From a virus: DNA of 64,000 nucleotides. The stretch lies in the IMG/VR virus record IMGVR_UViG_3300029214_000148; one strand, given 5' to 3'. A program made the translations under genes and the position numbers. How positions within the stretch are numbered: the stretch's first letter is position 1; each line of letters starts with the position of its first letter. This document shows positions 6,289 to 57,590 of this stretch, piece after piece. A model generated the notes under the pieces. The model had not been told where the DNA came from. It made no database searches and saw only the letters and a list, made by a program, of their open reading frames with translations.

Positions 6289-8760
6289 ATGAAAATCATT
6301 ATTGCAGAAAAACCATCTGTTGGACGCACCTATGCGCAGGTGCTCGGCGTCCATAACAAGGAAGATGGTTACATGGAAAGTGATGAATGGATCGTCACAT
6401 GGTCGGTCGGACACCTTGTAACTTTGTGTTACCCGGAGGATTATGACCCGGAACTGAAACACTGGTCTATGGATACGCTTCCATTTTTACCGGAAACATA
6501 CCATTACCGAGTCATCGATGATGTCCGGAAACAGTTTGAAATCATAAAGAAGCTGTACCACCGGGATGACATCTCGGCGATCTATTACGCAGGAGATTCT
6601 GGACGTGAAGGTTTATACATCCAGATGCTCATAAGGGCACAGGCGGGCACAAAAGCAGGAATCGAGGAAAAAGTGGTATGGATTGATACGCAGACGGACG
6701 AAGAAGTCCTTCGCGGCATTCGGGAAGCAAAGCCTCTTTCCACGAAATTCTATCAGGATCTTATGCAGGCCGGATACATGCGTGCGATTGCAGACTCCGC
6801 AATCGGTATCAATTTTTCAAGAGCATTAACCATTAAATACGGGAACATGTTCCGTTCAAAGTCAAAAACAGACACAAAAGGAGCGATCCGGGCAGGAAGG
6901 GTAATGTCAGCCGTTCTTGGCATGATTGTTGAAAAGGAACGTGCAATCAAGAATTTCAAAGCGGTGCCATATTACAAGATTTCGAACAAAGTGACTGTCC
7001 CTGGCGGAACAATCACCGGCAACTGGAAAATTACCGATGACTCCAAGTATAAGGATTCCCCTCTTTTATATGAGGAAAAGGGGTTCCGGGAGGAAACCGA
7101 CGCGAGAAAAATGATCTCCGGACTGTCATCCCAGGTAACCGTAAAGACTTTTTCCAAAAAACCGGTAAAAAAGAACGCACCATTGCTGTTTAACCTTGCA
7201 GAGCTCCAGTCAGAATGCTCCAAATTATTCAAAATTGGTCCGGATAAGACACTGGAAATAGCACAGAGCCTCTACGAGAAGAAGCTCACCACGTATCCAA
7301 GAACAGACGCGAGAGTGCTGACTACGGCTATGGCAGGAGAAGTTGACAAGAACATCAAGGGGCTGACCGGATACAGCACGGTCTCATTCTTTGCATCAGC
7401 TATTCTGGACAATCACTGGTATAAGGGTATTGTAAAGACCAAATACATTGATGACTCAAAAGTAACCGATCACTACGCCATTATTCCAACTGGCGACACC
7501 AGCGCGTTAAGCAGTCTGAAAACAGAGGAAGCGGACGTTTACGAACTGATTGTAAAGCGATTCCTGAGTATTTTTTACCCGCCGGCTGTCTACGAGCAGG
7601 TATCCATCGAGATGATTGCCGGAACAGAACATTTTTTCACATCCGACAAGGTGCTCTCAGAAAAAGGCTTCTATGAAGTTGCCGGAATTCCAAAAGCGGA
7701 TAAGGAAGGGAAAGACTTTTCCATTTACGAGGGTATTGTATCCGGTTCTTCTTATGACAGTGCATACGGTATTGATAAAGGGACGACCTCCCCGCCAAGT
7801 AGATACACCTCCGGCTCCATTATCCTTGCTATGGAAAACGCGGGGAACCTGCTGGAAGATGAGGAACTGCGTGCGCAGATTAAAGGATGTGGCATCGGAA
7901 CATCTGCCACAAGAGGCGAGATCTACAAGAAGCTTCTGGCAATCAAGTACATCCAGACAGACAAGAAAACACAGGTCTTAACACCAACAGAAGACGGTTG
8001 CATCATCTACGACATCATGAAGGACGCACTTCCGGAGTTATTATCGCCGAAGATGACCGCCGAATGGGAACAGGGGTTATCCGAGATTGAGAATGGCATG
8101 GCCTCCAGAGAGGATTACCAGAACCAGATCAACGAATTTGTGAGAGAAAAGATCCAGCTGATCAAAGAAAAGAATAACGGGGAGAATTACAAAGGGGAAT
8201 CCACCGCGGTGGAAACAAATTTCAAGTGCCCGCTGTGCGGAGGAAAGATTCTCTTCCATAAAAAATATGGTTACAAATGCGAAAAACACATCAAAAAAGA
8301 TGAAGGCTGCAGTTTCCGTATTGGACCGATTCTTGGAATTCTGATTGGAGACAGGGATCTGAATGATTTACTCGAAAAAGGAGTCACAAGACAGATTAAA
8401 GGCTGGTTATCAAAGAGTGGAAAGAAATTTGACGCTGCCCTCCGGATAAAAGTAGACAAGCTGGAGAACAAAATGGAACTCTCCTTTGATTTTGATGCAG
8501 GAAGAGATAAGATCATCTGCCCGAAGTGCGGCGGAGAAGTACGGGAAGGACCAAAAGGATATTTCTGTTCCAACTACAAAAACGGATGTCAGTTGAATGG
8601 TTTATGGAAAAATGCCTGCTGGGTAAACATTACTGCTAAAGACGTCAAACAGCTTCTCGCAGGAAAGACTATTGAAAAAGCTGCAAAGGCGAAGAGCGGG
8701 GAAAGTTACAAAAAAAAGCTTATCTATGATATCAAAAAAGGTGAAATCCACGAAGTTTAA
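6289..8760 (+). CDS. topB: DNA topoisomerase III with C-terminal zinc ribbons
   Basis: 823 aa. Toprim start MKIIIAEKPSVGRTYAQVLG. Type IA core. C-terminal C4 ribbons CPLCGGK...CEKH and CPKCGGEV. Confidence 0.85.
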   Translation: MKIIIAEKPSVGRTYAQVLGVHNKEDGYMESDEWIVTWSVGHLVTLCYPEDYDPELKHWSMDTLPFLPETYHYRVIDDVRKQFEIIKKLYHRDDISAIYYAGDSGREGLYIQMLIRAQAGTKAGIEEKVVWIDTQTDEEVLRGIREAKPLSTKFYQDLMQAGYMRAIADSAIGINFSRALTIKYGNMFRSKSKTDTKGAIRAGRVMSAVLGMIVEKERAIKNFKAVPYYKISNKVTVPGGTITGNWKITDDSKYKDSPLLYEEKGFREETDARKMISGLSSQVTVKTFSKKPVKKNAPLLFNLAELQSECSKLFKIGPDKTLEIAQSLYEKKLTTYPRTDARVLTTAMAGEVDKNIKGLTGYSTVSFFASAILDNHWYKGIVKTKYIDDSKVTDHYAIIPTGDTSALSSLKTEEADVYELIVKRFLSIFYPPAVYEQVSIEMIAGTEHFFTSDKVLSEKGFYEVAGIPKADKEGKDFSIYEGIVSGSSYDSAYGIDKGTTSPPSRYTSGSIILAMENAGNLLEDEELRAQIKGCGIGTSATRGEIYKKLLAIKYIQTDKKTQVLTPTEDGCIIYDIMKDALPELLSPKMTAEWEQGLSEIENGMASREDYQNQINEFVREKIQLIKEKNNGENYKGESTAVETNFKCPLCGGKILFHKKYGYKCEKHIKKDEGCSFRIGPILGILIGDRDLNDLLEKGVTRQIKGWLSKSGKKFDAALRIKVDKLENKMELSFDFDAGRDKIICPKCGGEVREGPKGYFCSNYKNGCQLNGLWKNACWVNITAKDVKQLLAGKTIEKAAKAKSGESYKKKLIYDIKKGEIHEV

Positions 8761-9801: not shown

Positions 9802-10449
9802 ATGGCAATAAACTATGTAGTCCGTGTATCGGACGGGGAAAATGAAATTTACTACCAGCGCAAAAAGCTTTACGATATGGGACTACGTTTTAACAAGCGT
9901 GCCGGGCGAGGTGATTCTTTTTACGAAAAGAAGTGTGAAGAGAATGAAGCACACGCCATCGAGAAGTTTGCAGAACTCAATGGGTTAAAATGCATCCTTA
10001 TCCCGGAACAGTACACACGCTCTGATAATTACCGGAAAGAGTTCTTTAAGGCACAGAAACCGGTCAATAATGCACTGTACCGATGCGCTTACTGTGGTAA
10101 GAAATTCACATTCCAGCAGATCCAAGTTGACCATATTTTCCCTGTCAACGAACTTTCTTACAGCGGAATTGTAAGAAAGAGAGCAGCATCTTACGGAATC
10201 GCAAATGCCAATGATGTCAAAAACCTCTGCTGTGCATGTAAAAAGTGCAATCTGAAAAAAGGAACGAAACTCGGCATGTGGGTAATCCGTGGATTTCTCG
10301 GCAAGCATGAGGCGTACTGGAAGGTACGGCATATTGCAAAGGCAATAGTCTTCTGGTTATGCATTATATTTGCGATCTCCTTTTTAAAAGAAAATGCCCC
10401 GGAATTTTTCCAGACATTGACCAAGCTTTTCCTGTATCCTTTTGCATAA
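9802..10449 (+). CDS. HNH endonuclease domain protein with C-terminal membrane helix
   Basis: CAYCGKKF...VDHIFPV...CCACKKCNLKKG (HNH); hydrophobic C-terminus. Confidence 0.6.
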   Translation: MAINYVVRVSDGENEIYYQRKKLYDMGLRFNKRAGRGDSFYEKKCEENEAHAIEKFAELNGLKCILIPEQYTRSDNYRKEFFKAQKPVNNALYRCAYCGKKFTFQQIQVDHIFPVNELSYSGIVRKRAASYGIANANDVKNLCCACKKCNLKKGTKLGMWVIRGFLGKHEAYWKVRHIAKAIVFWLCIIFAISFLKENAPEFFQTLTKLFLYPFA

Positions 10450-17369: not shown

Positions 17370-17657
17370 ATGCGGAAATTCAAACTTAAAATCTGCTCAG
17401 AGTGTCGGAAGATGTATCTGCCGACCTACAACAACCAGAAACAATGCTCGGAGGACTGCCGTATTTCTGCCGATCGGAGAAGAAAGAGGGAACGGCAGAG
17501 AGAAAAGAGAAATTCGTTTCATAAACTCCATGTCTGCCGGCAGTGTGGCAAAGAGTTTATTGCAACCACGGCATCCATGTATTGTTCTGATGTGTGTCGG
17601 AAGATCGCCCAAAAAGAAAGAGAGCGGAAATACGGGGAAAATGCAGGAGGAAAGTAA
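17370..17657 (+). CDS. zinc-ribbon protein with basic linker
   Basis: 95 aa; CSEC..CSEDC and CRQCG..CSDVC pairs, RRRKRERQREKR. Confidence 0.45.
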   Translation: MRKFKLKICSECRKMYLPTYNNQKQCSEDCRISADRRRKRERQREKRNSFHKLHVCRQCGKEFIATTASMYCSDVCRKIAQKERERKYGENAGGK

Positions 17658-17665
17658 GAGAAAAA

Positions 17666-17692
17666 GGACATAGCTTCGGCTGTGTCTTTTTT
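17666..17692 (+). terminator. UUCG-tetraloop terminator
   Basis: ACATAGC TTCG GCTGTGT + T6. Confidence 0.6.
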
Positions 17693-17743
17693 GTTTCATA
17701 TTCTATATGTAAACAAATTCAGAATTTGAAAGGAGAAAATACG

Positions 17744-18700
17744 ATGAAAAAGGAAGAAATTGAAAGATACGTGGCAGCAAGGAACAATACGGTTTTGAAT
17801 TTTCCCGACCGTGGGCCATGGGGAAACAATAAATATCGTGGAAACTGTAGTGGATGGATAATTGCATATCTCATCTGGAGATATGGTGTCAAATCTCTCG
17901 CGGAGCTATTTGCAGGTGGTGGCACAGGATCTGACGTATGCAGGGATATGGATATTCCATATATCGGCGCAGATCTAAATCCAAACCCGGTAAGAAACAA
18001 TATTCTCACCACTGATGCGGTTTCAGATGAGGTACCGGATGAATTCCGGGACAAAGATATGTTATTCATGCACCCGCCTTATGGTGCTGAAATAGGTATT
18101 CCCTATGCAGGAAGTATGTATAAGGATCCAACCGGGAAACTTGCAAAGTCAGATCTCGGACAGATGCCATGGAAAGACATCATGAAAACGTTAAATGCGA
18201 TCATCATGAAGTATTATGCTGCAATGGCCCCGGGAAGCAAAATGGCAGTTCTTATGGGAGATGTCCGAAGAAAAGGAGTATACCACTCTATGTTCAACGA
18301 CATTGTAATGCCAGGGACAGTTTTACAGACATATGTTAAGATGCAGAACAATTGCGTTTCCGACGGGCGAACATACAGCAATCGTTTTACTCCTATCGGA
18401 CATGAGATGATGTATGTGATCGAAAAGGCAATGAATGCTTACCTGATAAATTACAAAATTCCATTTGAAAAGGAGATGGACATTCGTAATTCTCAGGCAG
18501 CTACTTGGAAAGATGTTGTTTATGCGGCAATGCACAAGCTTAACAAGAATGCGACTATGGAAGAAATTTACGAAGAAATTGAGGGATACAAAAAATGTGA
18601 AAGTAATCCTCATTGGAAAGACAAAGTAAGACAGACTTTGCAATTTGGCCCATTTAAGTCCGTCAGACGCGGCGTTTGGAAACTTGCGGCGGCAGCTTAA
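17744..18700 (+). CDS. orphan DNA methyltransferase (amino-methyltransferase, motif I before motif IV)
   Basis: ELFAGGGTGSD (FxGxG) then FMHPPYG (PPY). No adjacent restriction gene. ATG after GAAAGGAGAAAATACG. Confidence 0.65.
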   Translation: MKKEEIERYVAARNNTVLNFPDRGPWGNNKYRGNCSGWIIAYLIWRYGVKSLAELFAGGGTGSDVCRDMDIPYIGADLNPNPVRNNILTTDAVSDEVPDEFRDKDMLFMHPPYGAEIGIPYAGSMYKDPTGKLAKSDLGQMPWKDIMKTLNAIIMKYYAAMAPGSKMAVLMGDVRRKGVYHSMFNDIVMPGTVLQTYVKMQNNCVSDGRTYSNRFTPIGHEMMYVIEKAMNAYLINYKIPFEKEMDIRNSQAATWKDVVYAAMHKLNKNATMEEIYEEIEGYKKCESNPHWKDKVRQTLQFGPFKSVRRGVWKLAAAA

Positions 18701-18719: not shown

Positions 18720-18748
18720 GCACGGCTTCGGCTGTGTCTTTTTTTTTG
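18720..18748 (+). terminator. UUCG-tetraloop terminator
   Basis: CACGGC TTCG GCTGTG + T10. Confidence 0.6.
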
Positions 18749-18803
18749 TTTCATATTCCATATGTATAACCAAAATTTCTATCAATGAAAGGAGAAAAAT
18801 GAA

Positions 18804-21471: not shown

Positions 21472-23772
21472 ATGAATCAGAATAAGAAGATAGCAGAGAA
21501 AAAATCAAGACCATACCAGCAGGAATGCATTGATAAGGTAGACAGCTTAAAAGAAGGAAGATTCCTGATTGCTCTTGCAACAGGGCTTGGGAAGACATGG
21601 ATCTTCTCCCATTTTAAGAGATACGGAAGAGTGCTTATTCTTTCACACAGGGATGAACTGGTCAACCAGCCGAGACGGTATTTCGACTGTAGTTTTGGCG
21701 TAGAAAAGGCAGAAAACCATTCCAATGGGGAAGAGGTAGTATCTGCGAGTGTTCAGACACTCAGCCATGACTCCCGTCTTAAGCAGTATAAGCCGGACGA
21801 TTTCCACACGATCATCATTGATGAGGCGCACCACGCTGCCGCGCCATCCTATAAGAAGATCTTAAATTACTTTTCCGGCGCTAAGCGTGTGATCGGTGTC
21901 ACGGCAACTCCGAAGCGTAGCGACAACGTCCGGTTAGATGACGTTTTTAACGAGATTATTTATGCAAAGGACCTTCGTTGGGGGATTAAAAATAAATATT
22001 TAAGTCCGGTGCACTGCCGGGAGGTCCGTGCAAAATATTCCCTGAAAGGCGTAAAAAAATCTATGGGGGATTTTAATGTATCCGATTTGGACGGTTGTAT
22101 TACGGAAGAAGCTGTAATAAGTGTTGCAAAAGTTCTTACAGACTGTCTTCAGGAGAATCGGCATATTCTTATTTATTGTACTACTGTCAGAACCTGTAAT
22201 TTCCTGAAGGCAGTAGTTGACAAACTGCTCCCGGAAAAAGAACGTGGCAGTGTTGCTGTTTTATCAGGGAAAACGCAGGAAGAAGATAGAAAAAATATGC
22301 TTGATGGTTTTATGAACGGGAGTGTCCGCGCCATTATTAACTGCATGGTTTTAACAGAAGGTACAGATCTTCCTATTACGGATACCATTATCAACTTCCG
22401 GCCGACGTGCAACGCGTCTTTGTATCAGCAGATCATCGGAAGAGGAACCCGGCTCTATGAAGGTAAGGAAAACTGTTTATGCATTGATATTCTTCCAGAT
22501 GATGGCAGCGGAACAAATCTGTGTACAGCTCTTACTCTTTTTGGTATAGATGCAAAACTTCTTGGAAAGAAACAGTCTCGAATGCTTGAAGGTGAGACTG
22601 ATCCGCTTGAGATTAGCGATGAAATTGCAGGACGATTTGCAGAACTTACAAAGGCATATGAATATCGGTTGGAGCAGGTTAATCGCTTTGTGCAGGAGCA
22701 GGAAGAAATTATATCTTCTGCGCGGAAGAAACCACATGCAGATTTAAACGACCTTGCGCATGCAGTAGATAAATATAATTCAAAGAAAATGGATGAATTC
22801 CAAAATGATTATGATTTCCTTGGAATGGATTACTCACTTATGCCGGATACGGAACATCGTTATTGTATCAAACCTACATGGAATGACCATATTTACCTTG
22901 CTGATCCAGATGTTATGGGAAATACAACAGTTACGTTTGATCTTACTGCTAGTGTCGGGAAATATTATATCGGTGAAATGAAAATGCAGGATGCAATTTC
23001 ATTTGTTCATGATTTTTGTATGATATCTCCAGATTATATGAAATATTCCTGGAACGTGGCATTACAGGATGAATGGGGGAAAATAAAAGCAACTGAAAAT
23101 CAAATTGGACGTCTTATGAATGAGTATGACGGGTTTCACAAAGGAAATATTAACAAACTTCAAGCATCCAGACTGATTGATCTTGCCTCTCGTATTTCGA
23201 AGATGAAGGCAGAGGGGAAAATGATGCTTATTACACCAAGAATGCAGGAAAAAACAATTGATAAAAAAAAGAAAATGTTTAAGGAAATACTCGAAAAGGA
23301 ACTGAGGGCAAAAGAGCAGGGGCGTAGTGAGTTTGGAGAATTCCAGTCGAAAATCTTTGCTTTGGCAGAAAAAAAGAAAAAAGACGAAGAGAAATTAAAG
23401 AACCAAAAGCCTTTGGAAGAAGAAATGCTCGAAAATGGGGCGATTACAGTTAATATTGCTGTTTTTAGTTCAAAAAAAACAGCAAGCGATGCGCAGATAA
23501 AATTTCTTGGTAATTTAAAAGATAAATTAAAAAACAGAGGAGTGGCTGTCGATAAAAAAATTCCTTATATAGGAATGGGAGCAGAAGAGGCAAGTGTATA
23601 TATTACTATATTAAAAACGCTTGTAGATCGTAACGTAGACCTTATAAAATATGGTAAAAAAATTTATTTTAATCCAAATACAATCATGAGTGTTGTATTA
23701 AAACTAAAGGACACTTCATCCAGAGAAATTAAATGTTGTATCCCGTTCGAAAAAATAGAAGAATTGAGATAA
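21472..23772 (+). CDS. SF2 (DEAH, ResIII-like) helicase with long C-terminal extension
   Basis: 766 aa; motif I ALATGLGKT; motif II IIIDEAHHAA; VTATPKR; no HD domain. Confidence 0.7.
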   Translation: MNQNKKIAEKKSRPYQQECIDKVDSLKEGRFLIALATGLGKTWIFSHFKRYGRVLILSHRDELVNQPRRYFDCSFGVEKAENHSNGEEVVSASVQTLSHDSRLKQYKPDDFHTIIIDEAHHAAAPSYKKILNYFSGAKRVIGVTATPKRSDNVRLDDVFNEIIYAKDLRWGIKNKYLSPVHCREVRAKYSLKGVKKSMGDFNVSDLDGCITEEAVISVAKVLTDCLQENRHILIYCTTVRTCNFLKAVVDKLLPEKERGSVAVLSGKTQEEDRKNMLDGFMNGSVRAIINCMVLTEGTDLPITDTIINFRPTCNASLYQQIIGRGTRLYEGKENCLCIDILPDDGSGTNLCTALTLFGIDAKLLGKKQSRMLEGETDPLEISDEIAGRFAELTKAYEYRLEQVNRFVQEQEEIISSARKKPHADLNDLAHAVDKYNSKKMDEFQNDYDFLGMDYSLMPDTEHRYCIKPTWNDHIYLADPDVMGNTTVTFDLTASVGKYYIGEMKMQDAISFVHDFCMISPDYMKYSWNVALQDEWGKIKATENQIGRLMNEYDGFHKGNINKLQASRLIDLASRISKMKAEGKMMLITPRMQEKTIDKKKKMFKEILEKELRAKEQGRSEFGEFQSKIFALAEKKKKDEEKLKNQKPLEEEMLENGAITVNIAVFSSKKTASDAQIKFLGNLKDKLKNRGVAVDKKIPYIGMGAEEASVYITILKTLVDRNVDLIKYGKKIYFNPNTIMSVVLKLKDTSSREIKCCIPFEKIEELR

Positions 23773-25877: not shown

Positions 25878-26146
25878 ATAGGAGAAATGAGCTATGACAA
25901 TATTAAATTTTATCATTGAGTGTTGGAAGAATTCTTGCGACGAAAAAATCAAAAGGAATTATGTTGAATCCCTTGCTAAAGTGGCGGTTTCAGTGGCCAT
26001 CATTATTATATCTGTTTTATTATATTTGCACATATGAAATGTATAACGGAAATGTATATTTTGGGGGAGGAGGGGTAAGTACAAACATAATTTTTAAAAA
26101 AGTAGCGCAAAGAAAGAATTCACTAATGCAGAAGGAGCGTAACAAT

Positions 26147-27970
26147 ATGATCAACGGAGAATTAGTTGTAGATAATTTTGCGGGCGGAGGAGGAGCTTCC
26201 ACAGGAATTGAACTTGCTACCGGATACAGCGTAGACATAGCTATTAACCATGATCCGGAGGCCATTAAGATGCATAAAGTAAATCATCCCAATACAAAAC
26301 ACTATTGTGAAAACGTATGGGAGGTTGATCCAGTAAAAGCCTGCAAGGGGCACCCTGTCGGTCTTGCATGGTTTTCTCCGGACTGTAAGCATTTTTCCAA
26401 GGCCAAGGGGGGAAAACCGGTAGAAAAGAATATTCGCGGTCTTGCGTGGGTTGTGCTTAAATGGGCGGCACTTGTCAGACCAAGAGTTATCATGCTTGAA
26501 AATGTGGAAGAATTTCAGACATGGGGACCATGTATTCCTATCAGGGATAAAGATACAGGACGCGTTATTGTCAGCATGGTAGGAAGGCATGACAGAGAGA
26601 AGAACGAGCCGCGTACGAGGGTTGCAGATCCAGGAGAAGTTGTTCCTGTAGATCGCCAGATATTCCAACCAGATCCTAAAAGGAGCGGCCAGACATACAA
26701 AAAATGGAGAAAGCAGCTAGAAGCACTTGGATATGAGATAGATACAAAGGAACTTGTAGCAGCTGATTATGGCGCACCTACTATGAGAAAGAGATTCTTT
26801 ATGATTGCACGGTGTGATGGCAAGCCGATTGTCTGGCCGGAACCAACACATGGACCGGCAGACAGTGAAGCGGTTAAAGCAGGTCTTGCCAAACCTTATG
26901 TAGGAGCGTACACGCAATTGGATTTTTCCATGCCGTGTCCGAGTATATTCGATACATCTAAGGAAATCAAAGAGAAGTATGGAATACGCGCTGTACGTCC
27001 ATTGGCGCAGAAAACAATGGATCGAATCGCAAGAGGATTAAAAAAGTTCGTATTAGACAATCCGGAGCCGTTTATTATCCAATGCAATCATGGTGGAGAG
27101 CGTAGACAAAACGACATCAAAGAGCCTTTACCTACTATTACTGGAAAACACGGATATGGAATTGTGGAACCTAAGATTGTTCCATATATGGGAACCAATA
27201 CAACAAATCATCCAGGTGGAAATTGTAAAAATCCTATACATACAATTACAACAGGAAATCAACAGTGCCTTATCAGCCCAACGCTGATTCAGTATTATTC
27301 CGAAACATCGAAGGATGAAGTCAGAAGCCAATCGATTGAAGATCCGATAATGACCGTGGATGGTTCGAACCGATACGGATTGGTCACGTCGTTTCTACAT
27401 AAATATTATGACGGAGGATACACTGGAGCTGGTGATACTGTCGAAAATCCGTTACCGACAGTAACATCCTGGGATCATAACAGTCTGTGTGCAGTTAATC
27501 TGATCCAAATGAATAATCATTGCGATGGAAGGGACGTGAAGGAGCCAATTCCAACAATCACAGCAGGCGATGGTCATTTCGGAGAGGTTAGAGCATTTCT
27601 GATCAAGTATTATGGTCAGGGAACTGGACAGGATGTTAAGGAACCTTTGGATACGGTTACATCAAGAGATCGATTTGGTTTAGTTACAATTAATGGTACC
27701 GACTATAAGATCGTGGATATCGGATTGAGGATGCTTGAACCGAAAGAACTGTATGGATGCCAGGGATTTCCAGATGATTACATCATAGACCGCGATTACA
27801 CAGGGAAAAAATACCCACGGAGTGAGCAGGTACGCAGGTGTGGAAATGCTGTATGTCCTCCGATTCCGGCTGCTCTTGTAAAAGCAAATCTTCCGGAATT
27901 ATGTGTGGCGAAGCGTACCGGCAATATGAAAATCCGGGAGGAACAGACCGGACAGCTTGGATTTGCATAA
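26147..27970 (+). CDS. DNA (cytosine-5)-methyltransferase with five repeated target-recognition modules
   Basis: Motif I FAGGGG; motif IV FSPDCKHFSKAKGG; motif VI ENVEEF; motif X GNAVCPP. Five repeats of (E/N)P(L/I)PT(I/V)T...G. Internal ATG after GAAGGAG. Confidence 0.7.
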   Translation: MINGELVVDNFAGGGGASTGIELATGYSVDIAINHDPEAIKMHKVNHPNTKHYCENVWEVDPVKACKGHPVGLAWFSPDCKHFSKAKGGKPVEKNIRGLAWVVLKWAALVRPRVIMLENVEEFQTWGPCIPIRDKDTGRVIVSMVGRHDREKNEPRTRVADPGEVVPVDRQIFQPDPKRSGQTYKKWRKQLEALGYEIDTKELVAADYGAPTMRKRFFMIARCDGKPIVWPEPTHGPADSEAVKAGLAKPYVGAYTQLDFSMPCPSIFDTSKEIKEKYGIRAVRPLAQKTMDRIARGLKKFVLDNPEPFIIQCNHGGERRQNDIKEPLPTITGKHGYGIVEPKIVPYMGTNTTNHPGGNCKNPIHTITTGNQQCLISPTLIQYYSETSKDEVRSQSIEDPIMTVDGSNRYGLVTSFLHKYYDGGYTGAGDTVENPLPTVTSWDHNSLCAVNLIQMNNHCDGRDVKEPIPTITAGDGHFGEVRAFLIKYYGQGTGQDVKEPLDTVTSRDRFGLVTINGTDYKIVDIGLRMLEPKELYGCQGFPDDYIIDRDYTGKKYPRSEQVRRCGNAVCPPIPAALVKANLPELCVAKRTGNMKIREEQTGQLGFA

Positions 27971-31115: not shown

Positions 31116-32900
31116 ATGAGTGGTTTACCATTTGATCCTATTATTATTGCGGTTGTCGCGGTCGTTGTGATCCTTATCGGCATACTTGCCAGCGGGTATG
31201 TCAAAGCGCCGGCAGACAAGGCATACATCATTTCCGGACTTAAGAAAGTTCCGAAGGTGTTAATTGGCCGGGCAGGAATTAAGATTCCTTTTCTGGAAAG
31301 AAAAGACGAACTTCTGTTAAAGCAGATCGGTATTGATATTAAAACCGGAGGCTATGTTCCAACGAAAGATTTCATCGGTGTTGATATTGATGCGATTGCA
31401 AAAATCCGTCTGATTTCCATGCAGGATGTAGGCAAAGAGAAAACCTATACCAGAACAATCGTTGATGAGATTGTTGACGGCAGCAATACAAAAGATGGAG
31501 ATAAAGAATATTCAACTCATACAGAAACTGTTACAATCAAGATTACAGAAGATATGGCGCGTGCGGCAATGCGGAATTTCCTTAATATGAAAGAATCCAA
31601 CATTGTTGAAGCTTTACAGGATTCTTTACAGGGAAATATGAGAGAAATCGTTGGTACGCAGACATTGCGTGCTTTGTGCCAGGATCGTAAATCTTTTGGT
31701 GATGAGGTTCAGAGCAAAGCGCAGCCGGATATGAATGCCCTCGGTGTATGGATCGAGTCCTGCAATATTCAGCGTATTGAGGACGAACAGGATCTGATCA
31801 ATGCTCTTGGTATGGATAACATGGCTGCTATCCAGAAGAGTGCAAGCATTGCAAAGGCAGAGGCTGACAAAGACGTTGCGATTGCACAGGCGAAGGCAGC
31901 AAGAGAAGCAAATGATGCAAAAGTCGCCGCTGATACGGAAATTGCTGAGAAGCAGAACGAGCTTGCAATCAAAAAGGCAGAATTACAGCAGCTCTCTGAC
32001 ACAAAGAAGGCGATTGCGGATGCTGCTTATAAGATTCAGGAACAGGAACAGCGTAAAGCGATTGAGACAGCAAAAGTTAATGCAGATATTGCAGAGCAGG
32101 AAAGAACTGTTGAACTTCGCGAGAAGGAAGCACAGGTTGCAGAACAGACACTTAATGCGACGGTAAAGAAGCAGGCGGATGCAGATAAGTACAGCAGACA
32201 GCAGGCTGCAGAAGCAAATCTGATTGAAAAATCCCGTCAGGCTGATGCAGAAAAATATCAGCAGGAGAAGGAAGCAGAAATCCAAAAGATTAAGGCAGAG
32301 GCCGATAAGGAAGCGAAGAAAAAAGAAGCAGAAGGTATTCTTGCAATCAAGAGATCAGAAGCAGAAGGTATCGCCGCTGTAGGTAAAGCAGAAGCTCAGG
32401 CAATCGAAGCAAAAGGTATTGCAGAAGCTCAAGCAATGGAGAAAAAAGCAGAAGCTTATTCAAAGTATAACAAGGCTGCTGTTGCAGAAATGACGATCAA
32501 AATGCTTCCAGAGCTTGCAGCCAAAGTTGCTGAGCCGCTTGGACAGATTGACAAAATCACAATCATCGGAGGCGGCGATGGCAGCAATGGTATCGAACAG
32601 GTTGCCGGGAATGTTCCTGTTGTTATGGCGAAGGTCTTTGAGAGTGTCAAAGAAGCTACAGGGATAGATCTGACAAGTATTGTTAATGCTGAGTCTTACG
32701 ATGCGAAGGTTAACCGCAATGTTAATTTAACCGGTATCAAAGATACGGTGGCAATTTCCGGCGGATCAAAGAGTGATACTGACGCAGATAAAACCGAGAA
32801 TTCCGGCATCGATTCTGATTTATCAGGAGAAAATGCAGAGGTCATCCGTTCTTTGGCAGAAAATGCTAATCAGGAATCAGCTGACAGTAATCTGGACTAA
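31116..32900 (+). CDS. SPFH/band-7 flotillin-like protein (YqiK/FloA-like)
   Basis: 594 aa; N-terminal membrane hairpin; SPFH core; long Ala/Glu/Lys coiled coil (AEAEK repeats). Confidence 0.7.
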   Translation: MSGLPFDPIIIAVVAVVVILIGILASGYVKAPADKAYIISGLKKVPKVLIGRAGIKIPFLERKDELLLKQIGIDIKTGGYVPTKDFIGVDIDAIAKIRLISMQDVGKEKTYTRTIVDEIVDGSNTKDGDKEYSTHTETVTIKITEDMARAAMRNFLNMKESNIVEALQDSLQGNMREIVGTQTLRALCQDRKSFGDEVQSKAQPDMNALGVWIESCNIQRIEDEQDLINALGMDNMAAIQKSASIAKAEADKDVAIAQAKAAREANDAKVAADTEIAEKQNELAIKKAELQQLSDTKKAIADAAYKIQEQEQRKAIETAKVNADIAEQERTVELREKEAQVAEQTLNATVKKQADADKYSRQQAAEANLIEKSRQADAEKYQQEKEAEIQKIKAEADKEAKKKEAEGILAIKRSEAEGIAAVGKAEAQAIEAKGIAEAQAMEKKAEAYSKYNKAAVAEMTIKMLPELAAKVAEPLGQIDKITIIGGGDGSNGIEQVAGNVPVVMAKVFESVKEATGIDLTSIVNAESYDAKVNRNVNLTGIKDTVAISGGSKSDTDADKTENSGIDSDLSGENAEVIRSLAENANQESADSNLD

Positions 32901-41013: not shown

Positions 41014-41232
41014 GTTGCGCCCCATTGGGTGCATGGGTTGAAATCTTTATGACCTTCTGAAAAGTGAGGGCATCTTAGTTGCACCCCCGCAAGGGATGTA
41101 TGGGTTGAAATTCAATAGAAACAGATGCATTCGAAGGCGTTACAAGTTGCACCCCGCGAGGGGTGTATGGGTTGAAATTGCAGAAAGCTCAGGATTGGAA
41201 GGTTGCATCCTATGGGATGCATGGATTGAAAC
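41014..41232 (+). CRISPR. small array, 4 degenerate repeats + 3 spacers
   Basis: repeats at 41014, 41078, 41146, 41202; spacer 2 (TCAATAGAAACAGATGCATTCGAAGGCGTTACAA) matches spacer 2 at 24044 with 2 mismatches. Confidence 0.7.
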
Positions 41233-41271
41233 GAACATATTTGTTATTATTTATTATTGAGATCAGAAAGG

Positions 41272-41308
41272 TCTGCAGTCAGTTAATCTGGCTGCAGATT
41301 TTTTTTTG
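41272..41308 (+). terminator. rho-independent terminator after the array
   Basis: TCTGCAGTCAGTTAATCTGGCTGCAGA + T9. Confidence 0.65.
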
Positions 41309-41336
41309 CAATTTTTTAAAAATTTTCCAAAATCTT

Positions 41337-41363
41337 TTGACGATTTTTTAAAAGGCGCAATAT
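41337..41363 (+). promoter_or_regulatory. family-1 conserved promoter
   Basis: TTGACGATTTTTTAAAAGGCGCAATAT. Confidence 0.5.
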
Positions 41364-41598
41364 ACATATTGAAGGGATAAACAGGGGCTTACCGTTTGTT
41401 TCTTCAATAAGAGTTTTTCTCTTATATGCCTCCTTAAGTTTCCTGCGCTGCATTTACAGCATTTTGGCAGCGCAGGGGGAATCCACAGGACTGCATTTGA
41501 CGTTGTGTGGCGGCCTGCTCATCCGGTTCAACCCCGGAGGATTCCCATACCGCTTATTTTTGCGGAGACAAAAATTTTAAAAAATATTCAAAAATTCT

Positions 41599-41625
41599 TT
41601 GACGATTTTTTTAAAGGCGCAATAT
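41599..41625 (+). promoter_or_regulatory. family-1 conserved promoter upstream of the cas operon
   Basis: TTGACGATTTTTTTAAAGGCGCAATAT; leader shares GAAGGAATAAACAGGGGCTTGCCG with the 41337 copy. Confidence 0.55.
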
Positions 41626-41678
41626 GTGTATTGAAGGAATAAACAGGGGCTTGCCGCTGTTGATTACCAGAGTTAAAA

Positions 41679-41707
41679 GTTGTGCCCCTATGGGGTGCAT
41701 GGGTAAT
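41679..41707 (+). repeat. solo degenerate CRISPR repeat in the cas5 5-prime UTR
   Basis: GTTGTGCCCCTATGGGGTGCATGGGTAAT; hairpin retained, 3-prime handle degenerate. Confidence 0.5.
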
Positions 41708-41718
41708 AAGAGAAAGGA

Positions 41719-42393
41719 ATGGAAAAAGAAAAAATGGGAGTGAAACTAAAAGTCTGGGGAGATTACGCATTGTTCACCAGACCAGAACTGAAAACTGAAC
41801 GGTATACATACGATGTGATGACACCGTCGGCGGCTAGAGGAATTCTGGAATCTATCTACTGGCATCCGGGACTTCGGTGGTATGTAGACAAGATTCATGT
41901 ATTAAATCCGATTGCCACTACGAGCGTGAGAAGAAATGAACTTCTCAGTAAGATACCAAAGTCAAATATGCTGCAGGCATACAACGGCGGGGATGTGAAA
42001 CTGTATAACTCGTCAAGAGACGATATTATCCAGAGGGCATCTGTTATTCTCCGGGATGTCTGCTATGTGATTGAGGCGCATTTTGAAATGACAGGGAAAG
42101 CGAGCCCAACAGACAGCCCGGCAAAGTTTATAAGTATCTTTAACAACAGGGCAAGAAAAGGGGCATGTTATTCGATGCCGTATTTTGGTGTAAGGGAATT
42201 CCCGGCACACTTTGAACTCTGCGAAGGAGATGAAAAGATCCCATCCTACTATGAAGGACTTTCGGATAAGGATCTCGGGCTGATGCTTTATGATCTGGAT
42301 TACTCCTGCGGTAGAGATATCCAGCCAATGTATTATCATGCGATTATGAAAAACGGCGTTATTGACGTTGGGAACAGTGAGGTGCTTCGATGA
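41719..42393 (+). CDS. cas5: Cas5c (Cas5d), type I-C
   Basis: KLKVWGDYALFTRPELKTERYTYDVMTPSAARGILESIYWHP matches the Cas5d N-terminal signature. Confidence 0.85.
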   Translation: MEKEKMGVKLKVWGDYALFTRPELKTERYTYDVMTPSAARGILESIYWHPGLRWYVDKIHVLNPIATTSVRRNELLSKIPKSNMLQAYNGGDVKLYNSSRDDIIQRASVILRDVCYVIEAHFEMTGKASPTDSPAKFISIFNNRARKGACYSMPYFGVREFPAHFELCEGDEKIPSYYEGLSDKDLGLMLYDLDYSCGRDIQPMYYHAIMKNGVIDVGNSEVLR

Positions 42394-44129
42394 TCTTTCA
42401 GTCACTTGTGAAATTATATGAAACACTTGCGGATCAGGGAAAAGTGTCCCGTCCTGGCTGGTGTAATGCAAAGGTATCCTATGCGGTGGTTTTAAACCAT
42501 GATGGGACGATTAAAGATATTGTTTCCGTGAAACAGAAAGTGAAGAGAGGAAAGAAGACTGTTGAAATTCCAATAATTATGCAGGTTCCAGAGATGGTCA
42601 CCCGCGCTAACAACATTGCCTCCAGCTTTCTCTGCGAAAATGCAAAGTATCTCTTTGGAATTGACGAAAAGATGAGTTTGCGTACACTGGAATGTTTTAA
42701 GGCGGCAAAGAAAAAACATCTTGATATTCTTGATGTTGTGGATTCACCTGTAGCACAGACGGTATGTAACTTTTTCCGTTCATGGGATCCGGAACAGGCG
42801 TTGGATCAACCGGCTGTTGCAAAACTTGCAGAAGAGTTTTATAAAGGCGGAAACCTCGTTTTTGAAGTAGATGGGGAATATGTGCATGATGATGAAGAAG
42901 TCCGCAGGGCATGGATGGATTACAGCAGTGTACCATATGAAATGGTAACTGGAAGATGCCTTATTACTGGAGAGGAAGCGGAGATTGCCCGCACGCACGG
43001 GAAAATCAAAGGAGTTCCGGGAGCACAGTCATCTGGCGCGTCGCTTGTATCATTTAACGGAGCATCCCTTGAGTCTTATGAAAAAACACAGAGCTACAAC
43101 GCGCCGATTAGCACCTATGCGGCGTATGCATATGTGACCGCGCTGAATTACTTGCTTTCTACGGACGGGTATCACAGCAAGGTAGGAGATTCCATGGTGG
43201 TTTTCTGGACAGATTCCGGGGATGTGGATGATGTGAGCAGACTGCGGAAGATGATGGGAAATATCAATGAAAAGGATCACACCCTTACAGATACGGATGA
43301 AAAACTGTACGTCCTCTGCCTTGCACCAAATGCCGGGCGAATTGCAGTCCGGTTCTTCTATGAGGATGCGATCGGGGCAATCTGGGAAAACCTGTCCGAA
43401 CATGCCAGCCGGATGAAGATTGTAAAACCAGTATTTGAGGATCAAGAATTTATCAATATCTGGCAGATGCTCATGGAGACAGTCAACCAGAATCTTACAG
43501 ATAAAACACCTGTCCCGCATATGTCAGCAATGACGTTACAGTCAGTCATTTCGGATACACCGTATCCGCAGAGTCTGTATGCAGGTGTGTTATCTCGTAT
43601 CCGCGCGGAGCACAAAGGTGTTACTTACAGAAAAGCATCGATTATTAAAGCTTTTTTAATAAAGAACTACAAATGGGAGGAAGGAAAAAATATGGAAGCA
43701 TTAAATGAAGGCTGTAAGGATCGGGCATATATCCTTGGAAGACTGTTTGCGGTTATGGAAAAGGCACAGAAAGAAGCAGTTGGCAATATCAACCAGACAA
43801 TTTGTGATAAGTTTTACAATTCCGCGTGCACAACACCAAGATCGATCTTTCCAGTACTGATCAGGCTATCTAACAGTCATTTAAGTAAGTTGAAACGGAC
43901 AAAACCGGGGAGAGGATATTATTTTACAGCTAAAATGCAGGATTTAATGGATAAAATTCCGGTAACAGATGATGATCCGGGATTTCCGCGGCGTTTCTCA
44001 TATGAGGATCAGGGTAAGTTTGCACTTGGTTATTATCATCAGATGCGGGCGGAATATACAAGCAGTAAGTTAAAAGATAATGATTCAGAAGGTGATCAGA
44101 CAAATGCAGAGAATATGGAGGAAAACTAA
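42390..44129 (+). CDS. cas8c: Cas8c (Csd1), type I-C large subunit
   Basis: 579 aa between cas5c and cas7c; N-terminus MIFQSLVKLYETL typical of Csd1. Confidence 0.7.
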   Translation: MIFQSLVKLYETLADQGKVSRPGWCNAKVSYAVVLNHDGTIKDIVSVKQKVKRGKKTVEIPIIMQVPEMVTRANNIASSFLCENAKYLFGIDEKMSLRTLECFKAAKKKHLDILDVVDSPVAQTVCNFFRSWDPEQALDQPAVAKLAEEFYKGGNLVFEVDGEYVHDDEEVRRAWMDYSSVPYEMVTGRCLITGEEAEIARTHGKIKGVPGAQSSGASLVSFNGASLESYEKTQSYNAPISTYAAYAYVTALNYLLSTDGYHSKVGDSMVVFWTDSGDVDDVSRLRKMMGNINEKDHTLTDTDEKLYVLCLAPNAGRIAVRFFYEDAIGAIWENLSEHASRMKIVKPVFEDQEFINIWQMLMETVNQNLTDKTPVPHMSAMTLQSVISDTPYPQSLYAGVLSRIRAEHKGVTYRKASIIKAFLIKNYKWEEGKNMEALNEGCKDRAYILGRLFAVMEKAQKEAVGNINQTICDKFYNSACTTPRSIFPVLIRLSNSHLSKLKRTKPGRGYYFTAKMQDLMDKIPVTDDDPGFPRRFSYEDQGKFALGYYHQMRAEYTSSKLKDNDSEGDQTNAENMEEN

Positions 44130-44130
44130 G

Positions 44131-45042
44131 ATGAGCACACCAATTAAGAACAGATATGATTTCGTAGTATTATTCGACGTAGAGAATGGAAATCCGAACG
44201 GTGATCCGGATGCCGGAAATATGCCGAGAGTTGATCCAGAGACTGGCATCGGGCTTGTGACAGATGCCTGCATAAAGCGCAAGATCCGTAACTATGTGGA
44301 AACTGTAAAAGAAGATGCAGCCGGGTTCAAGATCTATATTAAAGAGGGGGTCCCGCTGAACCGGAGTGACCTTAAGGCAGTCGAAAGTCTTGGTATTGAC
44401 GTCGGTGACGACAAAAATGCACTTGAAGATGTAAAGAAGCTGAAAAAGACAGATGAAGATGTGGATCTTAAGCTCCGTGACTATATGTGTAGTAATTTCT
44501 ATGATATCCGTACATTTGGTGCTGTCTTGACTACCTTTACAAAGGCGGCATTAAACTGTGGGCAGGTACGTGGCCCGGTACAGATTGGTTTTGCAAAAAG
44601 TATTGATCCTGTTTTCAGCCAGGATATTACTGTAACCAGAGTTGCAATCACAACGGAAAAGGATGCGGAAAAGAAAAATACAGAAATGGGAAGAAAGAGT
44701 ATTATTCCTTATGGACTTTACCGTGTGGAGGGATATATTTCTGCTAATCTTGCCCGTAAGACCACCGGCTTTTCTGAAGACGATCTGGAACTGCTTTGGG
44801 AAGCAATCATTAACATGTTTGAGAATGACCATTCCGCAGCACGCGGGAAGATGGCAGTGCGTGAGCTCATCGTATTCAAGCATAACAGCGAGCTTGGCAA
44901 TTGTCCATCGTACAAACTGTTTGAAACTGTTGATGTTAAGAAGAATGATGGTGTTGAGTTTCCTCGTAAATATTCCGATTATGCAGTGACTATTCATGAG
45001 GATGCGATTCCGGATGGCGTGACAATGACTCGCAAAATCTAA
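44131..45042 (+). CDS. cas7: Cas7c (Csd2), type I-C
   Basis: VLFDVENGNPNGDPDAGNMPRVDPETGIGLVTDACIKRKIRNY is the Csd2 signature; start ATG after TGGAGGAAAACTAAG. Confidence 0.85.
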   Translation: MSTPIKNRYDFVVLFDVENGNPNGDPDAGNMPRVDPETGIGLVTDACIKRKIRNYVETVKEDAAGFKIYIKEGVPLNRSDLKAVESLGIDVGDDKNALEDVKKLKKTDEDVDLKLRDYMCSNFYDIRTFGAVLTTFTKAALNCGQVRGPVQIGFAKSIDPVFSQDITVTRVAITTEKDAEKKNTEMGRKSIIPYGLYRVEGYISANLARKTTGFSEDDLELLWEAIINMFENDHSAARGKMAVRELIVFKHNSELGNCPSYKLFETVDVKKNDGVEFPRKYSDYAVTIHEDAIPDGVTMTRKI

Positions 45043-45292
45043 AAAGATTTCCAGAGATTACAAGGCAACCCGCGTTTTGCGGGCTGCATCTGCTTGGGTT
45101 ATGCCGAAATGTAGAATTCCGGTGCGAACTGAAAGCTTACATAGCTTCTCTAGGAGACTCGCACCGGAAATGGAGGTATTAGTGTACAAATAGAACACAA
45201 AACCCAACTGTATAAGGCCGTTTGAGAACAATTAATTAGAGGAATTGTTTATATTTTGGCGATCGGGAGAGTTGTTTCTGTTCACTTTTACA

Positions 45293-46069
45293 GCTACGCC
45301 CCATGGAGGGCGTATGGATTGAAAATTGTATAGCCATCCCTGACAGCTTCCTCATTAGACGCTACGCCCCATGGAGGGCGTATGGATTGAAAATCTATAC
45401 TCTATTATGTGATGTACTAATGTCGCTGCTACGCCCCATGGAGGGCGTATGGATTGAAAATGATTGTTATTGGTTTTTATTCATGGAGAGGAAAGCTACG
45501 CCCCATGGAGGGGCGTATGGATTGAAAAGTAAGGTTTCGTCTCGAAGCCTTTATTCTGTTTTGCTGCGCCCCATGGAGGGGCGTATGGATTGAAATACCA
45601 AAATCTTTTGACATTCTTATAAATGGTAACAGCTACGTCTTATGGGGTACGTATGGATTGAAATCATAATAATTGTAGAGATCTCAATACAAAATAAAGC
45701 TGCGTCTCATGGAATACGTATGGATTGAAATGAAAAGGCGAGTTTGCGAAAGCAGATATTGGAATGTTGCGTCTCGTGGAGTACGTATGGATTGAAATTC
45801 CAACTTTAACTACATAACTATCCTGATAAACTTGCTGCACCCCATGGATAGTGTATGGATTGAAATTTAAAAAATCATGGATAACATCTGCGATAAGACG
45901 TTGCACCTCGCTAGGGGTGTATGGGTTGAAATTTCCATAATCGGTAGCCAATTATTATCATTAGGTGTTGCACCCCATAGAGGGTGTATGGATTGAAATT
46001 ATATAAAAATGATGAATATGTAAAAAAAATAAAAGAGTTACGCTCCATGGAGTGCGTATGGCTTGAAAC
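45293..46069 (+). CRISPR. type I-C-like array, 12 repeats in three repeat subfamilies, 11 spacers
   Basis: Repeats every 66-70 nt. Subfamily 1: GCTACGCCCCATGGAGGGCGTATGGATTGAAAAT (R1-R5). Subfamily 2: GCTGCGTCTCATGGAATACGTATGGATTGAAAT (R6-R8). Subfamily 3: GTTGCACCCCATAGAGGGTGTATGGATTGAAAT (R9-R11). R12 is degenerate. 3-prime handle GTATGGATTGAAAT conserved throughout. Confidence 0.8.
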
Positions 46070-46139
46070 CTCTTATTTTTTAAAAGATATCACGATTACA
46101 CCCAAAGTGGGCTTACGTAAATTTAAAGGAGAAAAGTAC

Positions 46140-56778: not shown

Positions 56779-56849
56779 TCAGATCCGCAAAGTTGCCTCA
56801 TGCCGGGGCAGTTTCTTATCGTCAAATACGGATACACAGAGGTTTAAAT

Positions 56850-57590
56850 ATGTTGGAAAAATACAGTTATGAATTGTGGAATGGAAATTGTCTGGAATTA
56901 ATGAAATCTATTCCTGATAAATCAATAGATATGATTTTATGTGATCTGCCATATGGGACAACTAAGTGCAAATGGGATATCGTAATACCATTTAAACCAA
57001 TGTGGGATCAATATAGTCGTATTGCAAAAGATAATGCCGCAATCGTATTGTTTGGACAGGAGCCATTTTCTTCTTTATTAAGGGTAAGCAATATCAGCGA
57101 TTACAAGTATGATATTTACTGGGAAAAAGAGCGGTTAACAAATATTAATCAGGTTAAACGGAGAGTTGGGAAAACTGTAGAGACAATATCTGTATTTTAT
57201 AAAAAACAATGTACATATAATCCTCAAATGGTTAAGCATGAAGGAAAACTAAGGAAAAACAGGGTAAAAAATGGTAAACTCGGAAAACTTACAGATGAAA
57301 ATGAAAAAAAAGTAATTGAGTATAATGATACTGGGTGGCGTTACCCTACGCAAGTTTGGAAATTTCAAAGAGATTGTCTGACTTCAAATTTGCATCCAAC
57401 CCAAAAACCATTGCTTTTATGTGAGACACTTGTCAAAACATTTTCCAATGAAGGCGATATTGTCCTGGATAATTGTATGGGATCTGGAACGGTTGGTGTA
57501 GCATGCAAACTTTTAAACCGTAAATTTATTGGTATAGAACTTGAAGAGAACTATTTCAAAATTGCAAAGGAAAGGATTGACCATAATTGA
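56850..57590 (+). CDS. beta-class DNA methyltransferase (N4-cytosine or N6-adenine)
   Basis: motif IV DLPYGT precedes motif I NCMGSGTVGV (beta order); no adjacent endonuclease. Confidence 0.65.
   Translation: MLEKYSYELWNGNCLELMKSIPDKSIDMILCDLPYGTTKCKWDIVIPFKPMWDQYSRIAKDNAAIVLFGQEPFSSLLRVSNISDYKYDIYWEKERLTNINQVKRRVGKTVETISVFYKKQCTYNPQMVKHEGKLRKNRVKNGKLGKLTDENEKKVIEYNDTGWRYPTQVWKFQRDCLTSNLHPTQKPLLLCETLVKTFSNEGDIVLDNCMGSGTVGVACKLLNRKFIGIELEENYFKIAKERIDHN

Follow-up and report, generated by a model that had tools for sequence, protein, structure and literature searches.

A six-unit array of candidate recognition modules in a probable orphan C5-cytosine methyltransferase of a gut conjugative element

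Introduction

Several temperate phages of Bacillus encode C5-cytosine DNA methyltransferases that are multispecific, such as M.SPRI, M.Phi3TI/M.SPBetaI, M.Rho11sI and M.H2I. M.Phi3TI has two specificities, GGCC and GCNGC. The present work concerns a methyltransferase gene in a stretch of 64,000 nucleotides (IMG/VR virus record IMGVR_UViG_3300029214_000148), called the window below and numbered from its first letter, which is a conjugative element from a gut bacterium of the Lachnospiraceae. An earlier note on this DNA, made from its letters, had read the gene as an orphan C5-cytosine methyltransferase with tandem modules resembling target-recognition domains (TRDs). The analysis finds six tandem units in this protein, the last of which is plausibly homologous to a genuine TRD. 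The preferred reading, held tentatively at a rough probability of 0.45, is that of a self-protecting orphan methylase in which the last two units, R5 and R6, would be a fixed recognition domain and the four units before them, R1 to R4, extra and exchangeable recognition modules.

The methyltransferase gene and its product

The gene is an intact open reading frame (ORF) and forms part of a long plus-strand frame, 25916–27970 in the ORF listing, on which products of 607, 643 or 684 amino acids (aa) can be called. The 607-aa start is favoured because a Shine-Dalgarno sequence precedes it and because the homologues in the family alignment also start right before motif I. A scan for promoters and terminators found no sites in excess of shuffled sequence. 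The features outside the repeat array are the following.

26132–26137, plus strand: Shine-Dalgarno sequence AAGGAG, 9 nt 5′ of the ATG at 26147
26147–27970, plus strand: coding sequence of the C5-cytosine DNA methyltransferase, 607 aa (Pfam, PHROG, motifs, fold)
26177–26194, plus strand: motif I, FAGGGG (aa 11–16), AdoMet binding, invariant in the family alignment
26375–26386, plus strand: motif IV, SPDC (aa 77–80), with the catalytic Cys80; S77, P78, D79 and C80 invariant
26498–26506, plus strand: motif VI, ENV (aa 118–120), invariant in the family alignment
26537–26671, plus strand: variable beta-hairpin insertion of 45 aa (aa 131–175) between motifs VI and VIII (family alignment; AlphaFold2 strands at aa 140–149 and 154–159)
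26768–26812, plus strand: motif VIII region, YGAPTMRKRFFMIAR (aa 208–222), with RKR at 214–216 (motif and family alignment)
26813–27103, plus strand: conserved family segment from motif VIII to the array (aa 223–319), predicted to be mostly helical (alignment; pLDDT 70–97)
27728–27781, plus strand: motif IX, RMLEPKELYGCQGFPDDY (aa 528–545), in which RMLEPKE is aa 528–534 (PDB sequence/profile alignment)
27842–27862, plus strand: motif X, GNAVCPP (aa 566–572; PDB sequence/profile alignment)

The enzyme class, which the earlier note had called from FAGGGG, SPDC, ENV and motif X, is borne out by profiles and fold. The protein scores 85.5 bits against PF00145, above the curated cutoff of 22, and matches PHROG 116, "DNA methyltransferase", at E 1e-99. 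Its score against TIGR00675, 73 bits, lies under the full-length cutoff of 100.65, because the array splits the match. Motifs I, IV, VI, VIII, IX and X are all present in the canonical order, and they are unchanged across family alignments of 22 and 50 sequences. AlphaFold2 models the catalytic domain with a pLDDT above 90 for aa 1–80 and 100–300, and Foldseek searches with the model retrieve 3g7u (a prophage methylase), DNMT1, M.HaeIII and M.HhaI at E 3e-11 to 1e-8, all over the catalytic domain only. The gene product is very probably an orphan C5 DNA methylase of a mobile element.

Two stretches of the protein stand out beside the array. The segment at aa 223–319 has P231, H235, I267, F268, L286, T290, R293, G297 and P308 as invariant residues. 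The insertion at aa 131–175 is limited to some relatives, and in relatives at 75–89% identity it is swapped or missing; as judged from the family alignment, it is a second variable module, within the catalytic domain.

The six-unit array

Between the segment at aa 223–319 and motif IX, the variable region consists of six tandem units of 32–37 aa each. Every unit runs from G-x3-4-(E/D/N)-P-x-x-T-(I/V)-(T/D) through a short loop, polar or rich in glycine, to a hydrophobic strand about 10 residues long, and the P-x-x-T-[IV] motifs stand at aa 327, 363, 400, 435, 467 and 500, at a spacing of 32–37 aa. The earlier note was therefore right about a repeat array in this region and wrong about its count and size, which it had given as five modules of about 45 aa. 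The framework that it proposed for the unit starts, (E/N)P(L/I)PT(I/V)T, stands in a looser form, (E/D/N)P-x-x-T-(I/V)-(T/D), since the six actual starts are EPLPTIT, NPIHTIT, DPIMTVD, NPLPTVT, EPIPTIT and EPLDTVT. The units, with the types into which they fall in the clustering described below, are as follows.

27104–27211, plus strand: unit R1 (aa 320–355), EPLPTIT..GYGIVEP, type B, an N-terminal "starter" type (unit HMM, clustering)
27212–27322, plus strand: unit R2 (aa 356–392), NPIHTITTGNQQCLISPTLIQYY, type B (unit HMM, clustering)
27323–27427, plus strand: unit R3 (aa 393–427), DPIMTVDGSNRYGLVTSFLHKYY, type D (unit HMM, clustering)
27428–27523, plus strand: unit R4 (aa 428–459), NPLPTVTSWDHNSLCAVNLIQM, type E (unit HMM, clustering)
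27524–27622, plus strand: unit R5 (aa 460–492), EPIPTITAGDGHFGEVRAFLIKYYG, type F, penultimate, conserved family-wide (clustering, position conservation)
27623–27730, plus strand: unit R6 (aa 493–528), EPLDTVTSRDRFGLVTINGTDYKIVDIG, type C, last, conserved family-wide, adjoining motif IX (clustering, M.Phi3TI alignment)

The type string of this methylase is thus B-B-D-E-F-C. The repetition is well outside what composition gives, as 20,000 shuffles of the protein contain 0.41 P..T[IV] motifs on average and never more than 4, against the six of the real sequence. A hidden Markov model (HMM) of the unit, built from the family and with the consensus GQSLDEPLPTVTAKGHHALVAAFLTKYYGTDI, matches all six units at E 9e-8 to 7e-16, and the array lies outside all Pfam and NCBIfam models. 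By their alignment the six units are paralogues of one another. Their pairwise identity is 19–41%, and DNA-level repeats were not found, which makes the duplication an ancient one. The hydrophobic half of each unit is modelled by AlphaFold2, with low confidence, as one long beta-strand.

Relationship to target-recognition domains

The link to described recognition domains comes from M.Phi3TI. R6 together with motifs IX–X aligns with the C-terminal TRD of this enzyme, with EPLDTVTSRDRFGLV falling onto EPAFTVNTIDRHGVA (BLASTP E 2e-5). A profile of R4–R6 lengthens the alignment into R5, where EVRAFL meets EVRAVL (hhalign E 9.5e-5, probability 59%). A model of R5–R6 from which motifs IX–X are left out gives 7.2 bits against the variable region of Phi3T, a value reached by none of 2000 shuffles (maximum 6.0). 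Because of these three alignments, the last unit is plausibly homologous to a genuine TRD, and the other units would be paralogues of the TRD core through the internal repeat relationship. The unit HMM touches M.Phi3TI only at two TL motifs, SPTLTT at aa 308 and AFTVNT at aa 354, with scores that are not significant. The array as a whole is probably a functional, TRD-derived structure that contacts DNA.

Family distribution and exchange of units

The methylase belongs to the very large PHROG 116 family of phages, plasmids and integrative and conjugative elements (ICEs). Proteins at least 95% identical to it occur on hundreds of gut-metagenome contigs, and some of these proteins are named Roseburia faecis by NCBI. 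In an exhaustive search among 50%-identity clusters, 9,423 relatives were found at E ≤ 1e-3 and 2,711 at E ≤ 1e-30. The unit HMM finds 3–12 units in 148 of the 150 best 50%-identity representatives, 5–8 being commonest, in a list that leans to high scores and hence to many units. Relatives are also present on more than 598 IMG/VR viral contigs, where the 72 complete proteins among the best 80 have 4–8 units. Protein length follows the unit number, with an intercept of 400 aa and 35 aa per unit. Cultured relatives include Roseburia phage Jekyll (76% identity), Bacillus phage phi105, with three units, and many actinophages, and plasmids of Bacteria and Archaea carry relatives as well. When the array alone was searched against plasmids of Bacteria and Archaea by tblastn, the matches were genes annotated as cytosine methylase or loci without a listed feature, and the array was not found in another annotated protein context. 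By its distribution the array is a family-wide trait, and this gene is an ordinary family member. In this respect the earlier note's likeness to phage multispecific methyltransferases needs amending: the modules do resemble the TRD core and do differ as whole modules between relatives, but the array itself is a family-wide scaffold, present in nearly all of the relatives examined.

Conservation is strongest at the C-terminal end of the array. The last unit has the family-wide signature ePlhT.TtKDRfGLVtV.g..y.ivDIgm and the penultimate unit eP.pTiTa.G.H.aeVrAfL.kYYg, while further 5′ only the G...P..T.T framework is conserved. Clustering of 950 units gives 11 types, which are set mainly by conserved loop residues (VKGGHFA, AhRGE, GGgGK, NRh, DHh and KDRFG are typical). 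Type C is always last and type F mostly penultimate, the nine further types fill the other positions, and every type but C, and mostly F, can be absent. The resulting type strings are almost all different, with 147 distinct ones among 149 proteins. Types B, G and I tend toward the N-terminal end.

The same observations can be taken further, in the strong form of the earlier note, to mean that all six units are independent and complete TRDs with up to six unrelated targets. The unit swaps, the loop types and the M.Phi3TI alignments support this as much as they support the preferred reading, and the two TL-motif units of M.Phi3TI equal the number of specificities of that enzyme. It is nevertheless improbable, since R5 and R6 are invariant across a family that spans many phyla and resemble one shared core, the units are shorter than defined TRDs, and 93 of the 149 proteins have at least two units of the same coarse type, which would be redundant.

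Close relatives gain, lose and swap whole units, so that 6-, 7- and 9-unit versions exist. P0288 and P0103, which are about 93% identical to this methylase elsewhere, have one additional unit of 36 aa exactly between R1 and R2. The first unit occurs in two variants, one kept by this methylase and the other by P0329, and both are present in P0271 and P0273, which have about nine units. P0273 has lost R4, and in P0271 it is replaced. Identity to this methylase in the P0281/P0329 group is only 39–53% over R1 and R2, compared with 78–92% for the remaining protein.

The amino acid sequence of the units is nevertheless maintained. Their dN is 0.09–0.12, against 0.07 for the catalytic core, and dN/dS is about 0.05–0.07, with dS saturated at about 2, so that only the relative dN values are firm. 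From these values the array is under strong purifying selection. This selection bears on a further explanation, namely that the array is no more than a linker, neutral or in decay, and that the enzyme is inactive or does not depend on it. In its favour, a natural relative, P0154, lacks the whole array, and the AlphaFold2 confidence for the array is low; yet besides the selection on the array, the loop motifs are conserved across phyla and hundreds of contigs carry the intact ORF in nearly identical form, so this explanation is given hardly any weight.

Some family members depart from the general plan. Among P0129, P0142, P0144 and P0154, some have a different module in place of the last unit (..DLKNWPKIRALLNKYCGY..DDEVILL.I.G..YFI.DIGMRML), and P0154, of 389 aa, has zero units and an intact catalytic domain. 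Relatives of 940–1190 aa (P0141, P0194, P0206, P0216, P0234, P0257 and P0267) have an intein at motif IV, at the catalytic cysteine, the insertion point being aa 79/80, which corresponds to 26381–26386 of the window. A Hint domain is present in all seven, a LAGLIDADG homing-endonuclease domain in four and an intein-splicing domain in two. Extra enzymatic fusion domains, which had been considered for these long relatives, were rejected, as the additional length is that of the inteins.

Other proposed relatives were likewise set aside. P1 Dmt was dropped, since the literature gave no link and Escherichia is not among the top organisms of the phage matches. M.BatI (PMC8936443) is a different, small enzyme and was rejected as a family member, and for the TET-linked phage GpC methylases (PMC8256090) a link to this family could not be made.

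Possible functions of the array

In the preferred reading, R5 and R6 together with motif IX would form a constitutive TRD that holds the DNA over the catalytic pocket. R1–R4 would be dispensable and exchangeable, each with the conserved loop of its type, and as recognition modules they would supplement the constitutive TRD or offer an alternative to it, letting the enzyme methylate more than one sequence context. The enzyme would be multispecific in the sense of M.SPRI and M.Phi3TI, built of shorter units, and by methylating the DNA of the element and of its host it would allow the element to survive restriction after transfer, and a single enzyme may in this way give protection from several restriction systems. 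That the upstream units add or alternate recognition is suggested because the loop types are distinct and deeply conserved, the architectures are near-unique, whole units are exchanged, the lifestyle is one of anti-restriction, and there is a homology link to M.Phi3TI. That they broaden or multiply target specificity has, in our estimate, slightly less than an even chance.

A bolder extension regards the units of about 35 aa as a modular recognition alphabet, in which each of about nine types, apart from the fixed F-C pair, would specify one DNA motif, so that the phage and plasmid methylases of the family would be "hyper-multispecific" enzymes, each having as many as about ten targets. This is unlikely. 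If it were true, the succession of unit types would spell out the specificity, which could be reset by inserting or deleting units, and the 6-, 7- and 9-unit variants of gut Lachnospiraceae would show moments in an arms race with the restriction systems present locally.

Several results weigh against the preferred reading. The unit types have a preferred order, which 77% of type pairs follow, compared with 57 ± 1% in shuffled strings, and together with the fixed C-terminal pair this order means that the array also fits a single repeat domain of the cap-and-body, solenoid type. The conserved GQ ahead of P-x-x-T is prominent only before the last unit, a hint that a complete TRD exists at the last junction alone. 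In the Bacillus phage enzymes, TRDs delimited by experiment measure about 38–50 aa, and the units here, at 32–37 aa, are shorter. The alignment to Phi3T domains, which the earlier note had proposed as a check of its modules, holds for the last unit, whereas the general unit HMM reaches only −3 to +2 bits against M.Phi3TI, which is not significant, and has no significant match to M.Phi3TII. In sequence and profile searches of the PDB the regions of motifs I–X align, and no solved TRD matches the units; at this end of the protein only motifs IX–X are aligned. Full-length AlphaFold2, run with a 50-sequence alignment, gives the array a pLDDT of 30–50 and no usable geometry, and for aa 428–607 (59 C-terminally anchored fragments) it gives 68–82 for R4–R5 and 45–48 for R6, with a pTM of 0.34, too weak for a fold search. 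Full-text literature searches found neither a description of the array nor a characterised family member.

Much of this suits another explanation, which we hold to be possible and nearly as likely as the preferred one. Here the array would be a single structural domain made of repeats, shaped as an open beta-hairpin solenoid in which N-cap, body and C-cap units follow one another, and it would bind DNA non-specifically or act as a spacer or clamp, e.g., for fast, processive methylation of incoming DNA. A single specificity would come from the junction of R5–R6 with motif IX, and the copy number would alter only reach or affinity. The fixed F-C pair with generic units upstream of it, the significant type order, in which the "starter" types B, G and I tend to come first, and the tolerance of 3–12 copies, which is typical of solenoids, all point this way, as do the one long strand predicted per unit, the shortness of the units, the position of GQ and the lack of a significant match of the unit HMM to known TRDs. 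Against it, about nine distinct and deeply conserved loop types would be unexpected for uniform contacts to the DNA backbone, any upstream type can be missing from architectures that are nearly all unique, and whole units are swapped between close relatives. Moreover, AlphaFold2 normally models solenoids confidently, and it does not do so for this array. The probabilities behind our wording for the preferred reading, the structural repeat domain and the six complete TRDs overlap, as these are nested claims.

Genomic context

The element has other genes that place the methylase in its surroundings.

6289–8760: topoisomerase III
9802–10449: HNH endonuclease-domain protein, 215 aa
14303–16705: VirB4/TraG-type ATPase
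21472–23772: superfamily 2 (SF2) helicase (ResIII and Helicase_C, aa 1–340)
31116–32900: flotillin/SPFH protein (Band_7 and Flot), 594 aa
54846–56102: RRXRR and HNH protein, 5′ of the N6/N4 methylase gene
56793–57590: N6/N4 DNA methyltransferase (PF01555 at E 2e-33; PHROG 67)
57587–59413: PcfJ-like protein, whose start is overlapped by the N6/N4 methylase gene

The neighbourhood of the C5 methylase recurs in independent samples, which are gut metagenomes assigned to Roseburia faecis, and the related contigs additionally carry LPD1 and Mob_Pre proteins. The flanking genes are small, unassigned ORFs, several of which appear hydrophobic on reading their translations. The SF2 helicase, which lies 2.4 kb 5′ of the methylase, is kept in every related contig examined, and its C-terminal part of 426 aa is unmatched in Pfam and PHROGs.

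Within about 5 kb of the methylase, no nuclease domain was found by Pfam, PADLOC or PHROGs, though endonucleases can escape profile searches, and within these detection limits the earlier note's statement that no endonuclease is adjacent holds. The pairing of a methylase with an endonuclease of the same specificity, which marks a type II restriction-modification system, was not recognised in these searches. As to DISARM, neither DUF1998 nor PLD had a match among the neighbours searched, and the helicase is a generic SF2 one. The phage and plasmid relatives of the methylase are likewise solitary.

It could still be argued that the methylase is not an orphan, and that a small neighbouring ORF, or the helicase with its unmatched C-terminal part, is the cognate nuclease of a restriction-modification or DISARM-like system. 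Restriction endonucleases are too divergent for dependable profile detection, the helicase matches the restriction-enzyme helicase modules of PADLOC, and the profile of DrmMII, the DISARM methylase, matches aa 479–580 of the methylase. This is very improbable, because the neighbours searched show no nuclease, DUF1998 or PLD domain and several look as if they spanned the membrane, the helicase is separated by four ORFs and has matches confined to the generic helicase core, and relatives of the methylase stand in unrelated phage and plasmid contexts without nucleases.

The earlier note had also counted two further methyltransferases on the element. The one at 56793–57590 is solid as an N6/N4 enzyme. 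The other, the ORF at 17594–18700, is at most a candidate methylase, with a match to N6_N4_Mtase that stays below threshold (E 0.002; 18.5 bits, where the cutoff is 26.7), in addition to a helix-turn-helix like that of DpnI_C, and it ends at a terminator-like hairpin near 18720–18750. In related contigs a 638-aa LPD1 protein takes the place of this area, and the region thus varies between copies.

Elsewhere in the window, at 41018–46070, genes of a minimal type I-C Cascade lie between two CRISPR-like arrays.

41018–41233: CRISPR-like array of 4 repeats
41719–42393: cas5c, type I-C Cascade gene
42390–44129: cas8c/Csd1, type I-C Cascade gene
44080–45042: cas7, type I-C Cascade gene
45293–46070: CRISPR-like array of 12 repeats of about 34 nt, spaced 66–70 nt apart and 65–100% identical

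Among the nearby ORFs tested, cas3, cas1, cas2 and cas4 were not recognised, and a conjugative element may here carry a Cascade that lacks both nuclease and adaptation genes.

Comparison with known systems

The closest counterparts are the multispecific C5 enzymes of the temperate Bacillus phages. Like the methylase described here, they are borne by mobile elements without an endonuclease partner, they have several TL-motif modules in tandem between motifs VIII and IX, and their module content varies between related elements. For M.Phi3TI the resemblance extends to the TRD region, which aligns with R6 and the strand of R5. It belongs, however, to a different subfamily, with GFPCPTFS as motif IV in place of SPDC, and the Bacillus enzymes differ from this one in further respects. 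Here an additional conserved segment of about 95 aa precedes the array, the units are shorter (32–37 aa) and far more numerous (3–12 in the family), they clearly resemble each other, the pair at the end is fixed and the types follow a preferred order, and the multispecificity is a prediction. The array is apparently undescribed, a distinct, repeat-built variant of the multi-TRD idea, and its novelty would lie at the level of the family.

For this single gene, as an ordinary family member, the result is modest. If the units were working recognition modules, no other set of multispecific DNA methylases would come near this family in size or modularity, and an idea that now rests on a handful of Bacillus phages would extend to phages, plasmids and ICEs throughout Bacteria and Archaea as a general strategy against restriction. 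We know of no structural answer to how one catalytic domain uses alternative recognition domains, and relatives with 0, 3, 6, 7, 9 and 12 units would be a natural test bed for it. In that case uses could be foreseen in the prediction of methylomes from metagenomes and in methylation tools for the transformation of gut bacteria that are hard to engineer. If the array were only a structural DNA clamp, it would still be an undescribed repeat fold in a classic enzyme family, of interest to specialists.

With the monospecific type II enzymes M.HhaI and M.HaeIII, the methylase shares the catalytic fold, motifs I–X and a TL-type motif 5′ of motif IX. They have one TRD and a cognate endonuclease, whereas this methylase has six units in an array and no recognised endonuclease partner. 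The known promiscuous modifiers M.EcoGII and Mom act on adenine with degenerate specificity, unlike this C5 enzyme with its TRD-like array. DrmMII of class 2 DISARM (PADLOC PDLC02654, 322 positions) matches the methylase at 96.7 bits overall, and its match at aa 479–580 covers the R5 strand, R6 and motifs IX–X, which implies that short relatives with about one unit exist. The DrmMII profile is too short for an array, and DISARM partner genes were not recognised beside this methylase. In its setting, finally, the methylase resembles the orphan anti-restriction methyltransferases of conjugative plasmids and phages (reviewed in PMC12707154; for plasmid leading regions, PMC11541004), as an orphan methylase on a conjugative element that would be expected to provide protective methylation on transfer.

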